A stretch of 64,000 bases of DNA, from the NCBI RefSeq assembly GCF_045037415.1, contig NZ_CP173438.1; one strand, 5' to 3'. Both the position numbers and the translations under genes were made by a program. Below the pieces are notes generated by a model. That model had not been told where the DNA came from. It made no database searches and was given only the letters and a program-made list of their open reading frames with translations. This DNA is from Escherichia coli. GTDB taxonomy: Bacteria > Pseudomonadota > Gammaproteobacteria > Enterobacterales > Enterobacteriaceae. Shown piece after piece: positions 34,531 to 37,491 of the stretch (the first letter of the stretch is position 1; each line of letters opens with the position of its first letter).

Positions 34531-34711
34531 TTGTTTTACCGCCTGATGGGCGAAGAGAAAGAATGAGTAAAAGGTCGGTTTAGCCGGCCTTTTTATTTTG
34601 TGATATGTATGGAGTACTTTAGAAGTATAAGTCCGTAACTTGTCTCGATGTAGATATACTGCACAACTTGTTTACAGTATGAGCAAACAATAATTATCAT
34701 AAAAATTCTTC

Positions 34712-34783: not shown

Positions 34784-34871
34784 GGTGAGGTGTCCGAGTG
34801 GCTGAAGGAGCACGCCTGGAAAGTGTGTATACGGCAACGTATCGGGGGTTCGAATCCCCCCCTCACCGCCA
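34784..34871 (+). tRNA. serW: tRNA-Ser (anticodon GGA)
   Basis: GGTGAGGTGTCCGAGTGGCTGAAGGAGCACGCCTGGAAAGTGTG...GGTTCGAATCCCCCCCTCACCGCCA: acceptor stem pairing, long variable arm, T-loop GGTTCGAATCC, 3' CCA. Confidence 0.93.
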
Positions 34872-34922
34872 TATTTAAAGAAGAGCTCGTACGAAAGTAC
34901 GGGCTTTTTTTTCGCATTTTAT

Positions 34923-35003
34923 CTGCCTGTACGGCAGTGAACTTGTCATTATTGGCAGACAGGATCCGCGGCAATTTCTAAGCTGCCTGTACGGCAGTGA
35001 ACT
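34923..35003 (+). repeat. two copies of a 21-bp direct repeat (CTGCCTGTACGGCAGTGAACT) spaced 60 bp apart downstream of serW
   Basis: Exact copies at 34923-34943 and 34983-35003; each contains short dyad CTGCC..GGCAG. Confidence 0.8.
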
Positions 35004-35149
35004 CAAATACTACACGTTTAGCCCGTTGTTAATAAAGCAAAACCATCTCAATCTCCTGCTGCCACCCTTTTTTATCCTTACCTACCCGCAGCACTAATTA
35101 TCAATAACTTACCATCATCATCAAAAAAAGGGTCTGAACCTCCTCCCCC

Positions 35150-35192
35150 CATAAATAAAAAGTCCGTAACCCCTGACGAGATTACGGACTTC
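35150..35192 (-). terminator. clpA rho-independent terminator
   Basis: AGTCCGTAACCCCTGACGAGATTACGGACT hairpin with T-run on minus strand. Confidence 0.55.
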
Positions 35193-35214: not shown

Positions 35215-37491
35215 TTAATGCGCTGCTTCCGCCTTGTGCTTTTGTGCACTCTGGAATCCGTAAGTCAGCTCATTTTTCTCTTTATCCAGCGCGACGGTGA
35301 CCTGACCGCCGTCCACCAGCGAACCAAACAGCAGTTCGTTGGCGAGCGGTTTTTTCAGGTTGTCCTGGATGACACGCGCCATCGGACGTGCGCCCATTGC
35401 CCGGTCGTAACCTTTCTCGGCCAGCCAGTTACGCGCTTCCTGGCTCACTTCCAGAGAAACACCTTTCTGATCCAACTGAACCTGCAACTCGACGATGAAT
35501 TTATCCACCACCTGATGGATCACGTCGGTTGACAGATGATCGAACCAGATAATGTTGTCGAGACGGTTACGGAATTCCGGTGTAAAGATCTTCTTGATCT
35601 CTTCCATCGCATCGGTGCTGTTATCCTGGTGGATAAGACCAATGGATTTGCGCTCAGTTTCCCGTACCCCGGCATTAGTGGTCATCACCAGCACCACGTT
35701 ACGGAAGTCCGCTTTGCGTCCGTTGTTATCGGTCAGCGTACCGTTATCCATCACCTGCAACAGAATATTGAACACGTCCGGGTGCGCTTTCTCGATTTCG
35801 TCCAGCAGCAGCACCGCATGTGGATGCTTGATGACCGCATCAGTCAGCAAACCGCCCTGATCAAAACCAACGTATCCCGGAGGCGCACCAATCAGACGGC
35901 TGACGGTATGGCGTTCCATATACTCGGACATATCAAAGCGCAGAAGCTCAATGCCCAACGCTTTCGAAAGCTGTACCGTCACCTCTGTTTTCCCGACCCC
36001 AGTAGGGCCGGCAAACAGGAACGAACCGACCGGTTTATGTTCGTGACCTAAACCTGCACGCGCCATCTTAATGGCTTCAGTCAGCGCCTCAATGGCTTTA
36101 TCCTGACCGAAGACCAGCATTTTCAGGCGATCGCCGAGGTTTTTCAGGGTATCGCGGTCACTCTGAGAAACACTCTTCTCTGGAATGCGTGCAATACGGG
36201 CCACCACGGATTCAATATCCGCCACATTAACGGTTTTCTTGCGTTTGCTTACCGGCATCAGACGTGCGCGAGCGCCCGCTTCGTCGATAACATCAATCGC
36301 TTTATCCGGCAGATGACGATCGTTAATGTATTTCACCGCCAGCTCTACCGCCGCACGCACCGCTTTTGCGGTATAACGCACGTCGTGGTGCGCTTCATAC
36401 TTCGGTTTCAGGCCATTGATGATTTGAACAGTTTCTTCGATTGACGGTTCAGTAATATCAATTTTCTGGAAGCGACGCGCCAGAGCACGGTCTTTCTCGA
36501 AAATGTTGCTGAACTCCTGATAGGTTGTCGAACCAATTACGCGGATTTTACCGCTGGAGAGCAACGGTTTAATCAGGTTAGCCGCATCGACCTGGCCACC
36601 AGACGCTGCACCCGCACCGATAATGGTGTGGATCTCATCAATAAACAGGATGCTGTTAGTGTCCTGCTCCAGCTGCTTGAGCAACGCTTTAAAACGTTTT
36701 TCAAAGTCGCCGCGATATTTTGTGCCCGCTAACAGGGAACCGATATCGAGAGAGTAAATCGTACAGTCAGCCATCACTTCCGGCACATCGCCCTGAACAA
36801 TTCGCCATGCAAGCCCCTCCGCAATCGCGGTTTTACCGACACCAGACTCCCCCACCAGCAGCGGGTTGTTTTTACGGCGACGGCAGAGAACCTGAATAGC
36901 ACGCTCCAGCTCCTTCTCACGACCAATTAGTGGGTCGATTCCGCCCACTCGCGCAAGCTGATTCAGGTTCGTCGTGAAATTCTCCATACGTTCCTCCCCA
37001 CCAGCTTGTTCTTCGCTGTTTGGCTGGCTGCCAGGATCAGAAGACTGTGTCGGCTCGTCTTTACGCGTGCCATGAGAGATAAAGTTCACCACATCGAGAC
37101 GGCTGACTTCATGTTTGCGCAACAGATATGCCGCCTGCGACTCCTGTTCGCTAAAGATAGCGACCAGAACGTTTGCACCGGTAACCTCATTGCGACCGGA
37201 GGACTGGACATGGAAGACCGCACGTTGCAGTACACGCTGAAAACTCAACGTCGGCTGTGTGTCGCGCTCCTCTTCACTGGCAGGCAGAACGGGTGTGGTT
37301 TGTTCAATAAAGGCTTCCAGTTCCTGACGGAGCGCAACCAAATCTACAGAACACGCTTCCAGCGCCTCCCGGGCAGATGGGTTACTGAGCAGCGCCAGTA
37401 ACAAGTGCTCGACGGTCATAAACTCATGACGGTGCTCGCGCGCTCTGGCGAAAGCCATATTTAAACTGAGTTCCAGTTCTTGATTGAGCAT
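35215..37491 (-). CDS. clpA: ATP-dependent Clp protease ATP-binding subunit ClpA
   Basis: [35 protein letters not shown]..., two AAA+ modules ([16 protein letters not shown]). Confidence 0.97.

Follow-up and report, generated by a model that had tools for sequence, protein, structure and literature searches.

A probable two-repeat orphan type I-F CRISPR array with an anti-cas spacer between serW and clpA of Escherichia coli

The direct repeats analyzed here lie in a 64,000-nucleotide stretch of Escherichia coli DNA (hereafter the window), in which the genes cydC, aat, infA, and serW are followed by the repeats and then, on the opposite strand, by clpA. The serW gene encodes tRNA-Ser(GGA) and was located with ARAGORN at 34784-34871 on the plus strand (Rfam tRNA score of 53.8 bits). 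Its intrinsic terminator hairpin occupies 34877-34912 and is flanked by T-rich sequence on both strands; a consensus scan returned terminator-like matches at 34877-34912 on the plus strand and at 34901-34888 on the minus strand. The clpA gene extends over 35215-37491 on the minus strand, according to the annotation of identical E. coli records and the list of open reading frames, and the consensus scan placed its terminator at 35192-35159 on the same strand. The interval between serW and the clpA stop codon is only 343 bp long. The 701 bp around the repeats are 100% identical to many E. coli chromosomes. In RefSeq records of the clpA-serW locus, the array described below is unannotated.

A previous reading of this DNA, made from the sequence only, had reported two exact 21-bp copies 60 bp apart at this location. 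A search of the 64-kb window confirmed this: CTGCCTGTACGGCAGTGAACT has two exact matches on the plus strand (34923-34943 and 34983-35003) and no further copies in the window with up to three mismatches tolerated, and it was matched in 0 of 100 dinucleotide-preserving shuffles. The repeat pair is not a product of chance. Measured from the end of the tRNA at 34871, the copies begin 52 and 112 nt past the serW 3′ end, close to the distances of 50 and 110 bp given in the sequence-only reading, and CTGCCTGTACGGCAGTGAACT is without similarity to the serW 3′ end, as had also been said. Several features escaped that reading, namely the 28-nt unit on the minus strand, the division of the 60-nt period into a 28-nt repeat and a 32-nt spacer, the coincidental nature of the 21st base, and the CRISPR array that these features very probably constitute. 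The first 20 nt of the repeat, which are conserved, make up all of CTGCCTGTACGGCAGTGAACT except one chance base, contributed by the end of the leader in one copy and by the end of the spacer in the other. A repeat-spacer periodicity of 60 nt is typical of type I-F systems (PMC3506596).

On the evidence presented here, we are highly confident that the feature is a two-repeat, one-spacer orphan type I-F CRISPR array on the minus strand, and that it has an anti-cas role. The identity of the repeats was computed against Rfam. The leader-proximal repeat, the 28-nt sequence GTTCACTGCCGTACAGGCAGCTTAGAAA at 34975-35002, matches CRISPR-DR4 (RF01317), the model of the I-F (‘Ypest’) repeat family, over its full length (1-28) with a score of 50.1 bits, compared to a gathering score of 35. 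The CRISPR-DR4 hairpin in this repeat has a 5-bp stem and a 5-nt loop; the dyad CTGCC-N5-GGCAG noticed previously is real and corresponds to this stem. The repeat would also provide the 8-nt 5′ handle of the crRNA, CUUAGAAA. It is followed on the minus strand by the single 32-nt spacer TTGCCGCGGATCCTGTCTGCCAATAATGACAA (34943-34974), which is directed at cas3f, and by the terminal, leader-distal repeat GTTCACTGCCGTACAGGCAGATAAAATG (34915-34942), which would provide the 3′ hairpin handle of the crRNA. The terminal repeat is intact over its first 20 nt, which include the hairpin. Its CRISPR-DR4 score of 29.7 bits falls under the gathering score because the last 8 nt are degenerate: they read ATAAAATG, identical at 3 of 8 positions to the intact CTTAGAAA of the first repeat. 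This degenerate end lies 2 nt from the serW terminator, which probably also ends the array transcript, since the hairpin is T-rich on both strands; serW and the array are convergent. Two repeats are the minimum possible size of an array, and such arrays fall under the threshold of most CRISPR finders.

The leader spans 35003-35158 on the minus strand, filling the space between the clpA terminator and the first repeat, and aligns almost base for base with the leaders of strains SF-166 and K-12. Its A+T content is 60%. A putative sigma-70-like promoter (TTGATG-16-GATAAT, 35124-35097 on the minus strand) matches the consensus at 9 of 12 positions; it derives from a consensus scan whose match count is near the shuffle expectation. 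The leader also contains the sequence TATCAATAACTTA (35099-35111, plus strand), which fits the IHF consensus WATCAANNNNTTR and is a candidate site by consensus match only; it overlaps the promoter-like -10 hexamer and is situated some 100 nt upstream of the first repeat. The predicted fold of the 139-nt array RNA is more stable than those of shuffled sequences (z = -3.3), and this value is mainly explained by the minimum-free-energy structure, in which the two palindromic repeats pair with each other. The hairpins described above are taken from the Rfam structure, and the whole-array fold carries no information on single Cas6f hairpins.

No I-F Cas homologues were found in the 64-kb window using tblastn with the six Cas proteins of SF-166 (best E = 0.29). 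As cas-F genes are absent from the window, the array is termed an orphan; neighbouring cas genes, which the window array lacks, are typical of CRISPR loci rather than defining for an array. Beyond the 64-kb window, the lack of cas genes is judged from proxy genomes in which this locus is identical.

The spacer was searched against 5,426 complete E. coli genomes and gave matches in 914 of them, each at exactly one place. An exact copy is present in 711 of the 5,426 genomes, EC958 and other ST131 strains among them; in all cases among the matches listed, this copy lies in DNA of the array type that is unannotated. Another 203 genomes have matches at 30-31 of 32 positions, which fall inside annotated cas3f in all cases among the matches listed. 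No genome holds both the spacer and the cas3f protospacer (711 and 203 single-place matches, respectively), so that spacer and target are mutually exclusive across the complete genomes. The match between spacer and protospacer was computed in detail for SF-166, where the protospacer lies on the coding strand of cas3f and agrees with the spacer at 31 of 32 positions. The sole mismatch is at the PAM-distal spacer position 29, the seed (positions 1-8) is perfect, and a CC PAM is located immediately 5′. This is the best match to any cas3f, with no perfect match seen. The gene csy3 is present in 241 of the 5,426 genomes (4.4%). The PAM of E. coli I-F is a leader-proximal GG, equivalent to CC on the other strand, and a constitutively active I-F system has been described in E. 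coli (PMC3506596).

Searches of the spacer against phages (50,697 records) and plasmids (72,556 records) yielded no credible target and, with one exception, only short, chance-level matches. The exception, the sole full-length ‘plasmid’ match, was rejected as a target, the record being 88 kb in length and containing the chromosomal macB-clpA-infA-cydD segment itself. This record (NZ_CP134387.1, pMTY11352_3) is typed as a non-mobilizable circular plasmid and holds macB-cspD-clpS-clpA-array-infA-aat-cydCD with the exact window spacer. The record represents either a circle excised from the chromosome or an artefact of assembly.

The window array is the known orphan array CRISPR4.1-2 of the CRISPR-III (clpA-infA) locus, that is, the same object and not just a relative. 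The two agree in locus, 28-nt repeat, leader, degenerate terminal repeat, number of spacers (one or two), lack of cas-F genes, and possession of a cas3-matching spacer, and have no substantive difference; the window carries the cas3f allele found in ST131, and K-12 the cas1f allele. The orphan locus has been described under the Mojica group’s name of CRISPR-III / CRISPR4.1-2 (PMC3903273). Touchon and Rocha referred to it as ‘CRISPR3’ in 2010, reported that spacers 1 and 2 match Cas1 and Cas3, and made the ‘anti-CRISPR’ proposal (PMC2886076). According to the summary in PMC8616872 of the work of Almendros et al. (2016, Nat Microbiol 1:16081), native orphan arrays are constitutively expressed, interfere with plasmids carrying I-F cas genes, and support primed spacer acquisition. 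The array, its distribution, its cas-targeting spacers, and its function were thus already published between 2010 and 2016, and no new biology is reported here.

On the basis of these features, the array would be transcribed from the leader towards serW, as an RNA of roughly 210 nt, and the transcript alone would be inert in a cell without I-F Cas proteins. On the arrival of an I-F cas operon, Cas6f would cut the transcript at the base of each repeat hairpin and produce one 60-nt crRNA, composed of CUUAGAAA, the 32-nt spacer, and GUUCACUGCCGUACAGGCAG. The incoming Csy complex would load this crRNA and recognise the CC-flanked protospacer in the incoming cas3f, upon which Cas2/3 would destroy the carrier DNA. 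Since the cell is without Cas proteins of its own, the crRNA would act only when I-F cas genes arrive, and the array would serve as a standing ‘vaccination’ against gaining the cognate CRISPR-Cas system. Cas6f/Csy4 cleaves at the 3′ base of the hairpin, and the degenerate 8 nt of the terminal repeat would for this reason lie outside the mature crRNA. The parts relevant to the crRNA are all intact in the window allele, including the 5′ handle, both hairpins, the seed, and the PAM match. An I-F complex carrying the window crRNA should recognise cas3f, as the seed is perfect, the PAM is CC, and the one mismatch is PAM-distal. The constitutive expression of orphan arrays, and their interference and primed adaptation against I-F cas plasmids, are taken from the literature; we infer from the sequence that the ST131-type allele with the cas3f spacer is likewise active.

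Other E. coli strains carry variants of the same array. In an alignment of the window with K-12 MG1655, both repeats, the flanks, and the leader are conserved, while the spacer of about 32 nt is unrelated; conserved repeats around a hypervariable spacer are a CRISPR signature. The K-12 spacer matches cas1f at 30 of 32 positions, with mismatches at positions 4 and 6 and a CC PAM. The sequence of the K-12 terminal repeat (within NC_000913.3, 925000-926600), ...CAGACAG, has a G-to-A change by which one stem pair of the Cas6f hairpin is lost, and poor processing of this hairpin is predicted. CTGCCTGTACGGCAGTGAACT is not an exact repeat in this strain, as the serW-proximal copy matches at 19 of 21 positions. 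Judged from its sequence, the K-12 array looks decayed.

Across eight strains, the arrays contain zero to two spacers, with eight distinct spacer sequences in total. Six of the eight, with those of the window and K-12 counted, match the I-F cas genes cas1f, cas3f, or csy3. Compared against the SF-166 I-F locus, the extra spacer of A31 matches cas3f (one mismatch, CC PAM), the extra spacer of E17 matches cas3f (three mismatches), the K-12-like leader-distal spacer of E17 matches cas1f (one mismatch, CC PAM), and the single spacer of 15.TR.026 matches csy3 (two mismatches, CC PAM). The extra spacers of 85.0412 and PapRG-04-4 have no match in this locus. In the two-spacer arrays sampled, the leader-distal spacer is always the anti-cas spacer of the window or K-12, or a one-base variant of the latter. 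The terminal tail ATAAAATG is common to all orphan arrays sampled. In SWHEFF_69, the leader is followed by one repeat with the ATAAAATG tail and no spacer; this array has presumably collapsed by repeat-repeat recombination. The leader-repeat junction was also searched for in 100,044 species representatives. There were four matches: two E. coli clusters, E. whittamii, and an E. coli-like MAG. The MAG carries the K-12 allele; the other three matches are to arrays with several spacers. By this search, the exact junction is essentially confined to Escherichia.

The extra spacer of 85.0412, GCACACGTCGAGCTGGTGGGGATTAATGCTGG, is found in about 126 genomes, including that of strain 536, and no source for it was found in the phage or plasmid collections. 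It overlaps a spacer in type I-E arrays of other strains, among them HUSEC2011, CCACACACGTCGAGCTGGTGGGGGTTAATGCT, with an offset of 2 nt, and the I-E spacer starts with CC, the would-be I-F PAM. Two CRISPR types appear to have sampled one site of the same element.

Complete I-F systems provide a second point of comparison. In SF-166, the order is clpA, leader, CRISPR, cas1f-cas3f-csy1-csy2-csy3-cas6f, serW, second leader, CRISPR, infA; the clpA-side array has eight repeats and seven spacers, and the infA-side array has seven repeats. The repeat GTTCACTGCCGTACAGGCAGCTTAGAAA is identical to every internal repeat of these cas-associated arrays. The computed leader homology is similarly close, with the clpA-side leader of SF-166 aligning almost base for base with window positions 35214-35003, up to the first repeat. 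The complete E. coli systems of LF82, UTI89, and SF-166 share with the window the CRISPR-DR4 repeat, the 60-nt period, the leader, the CC (GG) PAM, and the chromosomal position. In contrast to these systems, the window has no cas genes, one spacer only, and no infA-side array, and its spacer is aimed at cas3f of its own system type instead of at plasmids or phages. Related I-F systems occur in Yersinia pestis and Pseudomonas aeruginosa PA14.

The second array (CRISPR4.2), which would lie between infA and serW, is absent from the window; the window ceases to be homologous to SF-166 some 80 nt upstream of serW, and homology returns at the infA terminator. A search for the junction between the orphan and SF-166 arrangements found that homology on the serW side begins only at the A-run of the serW terminator. 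The tails of the terminal repeats also differ, with ATAAAATG in orphan arrays and TATTCACA in those of the SF-166 type. The orphan array may have originated by deletion or may have an independent ancestry. The 11-mer AAGTCCGTAAC occurs twice in the window, at 35160-35170, where it forms one arm of the clpA terminator hairpin, and at 34629-34639, in the infA-serW spacer where I-F-positive strains hold the second leader and array. This recurrence could be due to chance or could be the trace of a past rearrangement. Another arrangement is seen in SCPM-O-B-8794 (L005, 1484-2172), which has a 14-spacer array with the last repeat truncated after GTTCACTGCCGTA. About 10 nt further on, the sequence continues as cas3f from about 1.2 kb into the gene, with 94% identity to SF-166 (L003, 7455), from which it follows that cas1f and the 5′ part of cas3f have been deleted. 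The fusion junction is about 70 nt upstream of the protospacer of the A31 anti-cas spacer.

The repeats had previously been suspected to be att-type scars, from an island that an integrase had inserted at serW or excised from it. Integration classically occurs just 3′ of tRNA genes, other strains have a small insertion that comes with a duplicated serW 3′ end, and the I-F cas operon, an accessory module of about 8.5 kb, is found at exactly this flank in some strains and is missing from others. This last point is the one part of the earlier idea that loosely survives; the scar itself is not supported. Repeats of the att type are duplications of the tRNA 3′ end on either side of kilobases of island DNA with an integrase, whereas the copies in the window are unlike the tRNA 3′ end and are set 60 bp apart around a hypervariable 32-mer instead of flanking an island, with no integrase reading frame between serW and clpA. 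The serW- and serX-integrated O-islands of O157:H7 (attL/attR) resemble the window in having short direct repeats 3′ of a tRNA gene; the window repeats differ in being unrelated to the tRNA, in their 60-bp separation, and in belonging to a curated CRISPR family (Rfam CRISPR-DR4). I-F-positive strains moreover reiterate the same repeat, eight and seven times in their two arrays. The sequence-only reading had proposed a comparison of serW flanks, and held that universal conservation of the motif in genomes without a history of serW-associated elements would speak against a scar; in this analysis, the repeats and leader were present in virtually all 5,426 complete E. coli genomes, and the att interpretation is disfavoured on that ground. 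It is refuted by the Rfam match, the spacer polymorphism, and the cas-gene target of the spacer, and we give it next to no credence. The same reading had alternatively suggested operator-like dyads or processing elements. The latter suggestion came close, given that the hairpin is the Cas6f/Csy4 site, while the former lacks support. For the dyads to bind a transcription factor, or for the transcript to modulate serW 3′-end formation or clpA termination without Cas proteins, seems highly improbable to us, despite the perfect dyad symmetry, an array transcript that would converge on serW and share its terminator, and the stability of the 139-nt RNA (z = -3.3, mainly through repeat-repeat pairing). 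No regulator is known or suggested, I-F-positive strains tolerate 8.5 kb of cas genes between the array and serW, one strain has collapsed to a single repeat, and the Cas6f hairpin accounts for the dyad completely. It is very doubtful, too, that the transcript has a Cas-independent cis effect on serW 3′-end formation or clpA read-through in addition to the anti-cas role; if it did, this would be a second reason for the near-universal retention of the array in cas-less E. coli.

A more serious alternative accepts the array and questions its present role. An ancestral I-F system may have gained a self-targeting cas spacer and then been deleted, leaving a neutral fossil that has no present function and is decaying. 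The hypothesis of Díez-Villaseñor that cas-targeting spacers caused cas loss, as recounted in PMC2886076 and PMC8616872, is in line with such a history. So are signs of decay in some strains, among them the hairpin mutation and seed mismatches of K-12 and the single repeat of SWHEFF_69, and the fusion of the SCPM-O-B-8794 array to a 5′-truncated cas3f indicates that deletions from the array do occur. It is harder to reconcile neutrality with the observation that anti-cas spacers have been kept as the leader-distal anchor in divergent lineages despite the ease of repeat-repeat loss, an argument made in PMC2886076, or with the interference of native orphan arrays with I-F cas plasmids, in the account given by PMC8616872. 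The window allele itself retains its hairpins, 5′ handle, seed, and PAM match. We consider a neutral fossil unlikely on balance, but still a possibility of some weight. It is not exclusive of the anti-cas role, since an array that is a fossil by origin can still be a barrier.

Interpreted as an anti-cas array, the locus is an example of a genome aiming a CRISPR spacer at CRISPR-Cas itself. The array may be one reason for the low share (about 4%) of complete E. coli genomes with I-F cas genes. The analysis also indicates that an apparent att scar can be an easily overlooked two-repeat CRISPR array, which is recoverable from raw sequence.

Two minor observations concern serW itself. In PapRG-04-4 and 15.TR.026_OXA, the gene is interrupted in the T-arm by an element of about 115 nt, annotated by PGAP as ‘RtT sRNA’. 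In PapRG-04-4, whose sequence reaches far enough for this to be seen, the insertion is followed by a duplicated serW terminator and tRNA 3′ end; this duplication, which is absent from the window, is a true tRNA-flank duplication of the kind envisaged in the sequence-only reading. The serW gene of SF-166 (L003, 13734-13821) differs from that of the window at two positions, which together turn the first T-stem pair from G-C into C-G in a compensatory exchange (GGGGG..CCCCC compared to CGGGG..CCCCG). ARAGORN still calls this variant as tRNA-Ser(GGA). The difference suggests that serW travels, or has recombined, with the cas module and is not a fixed landmark.
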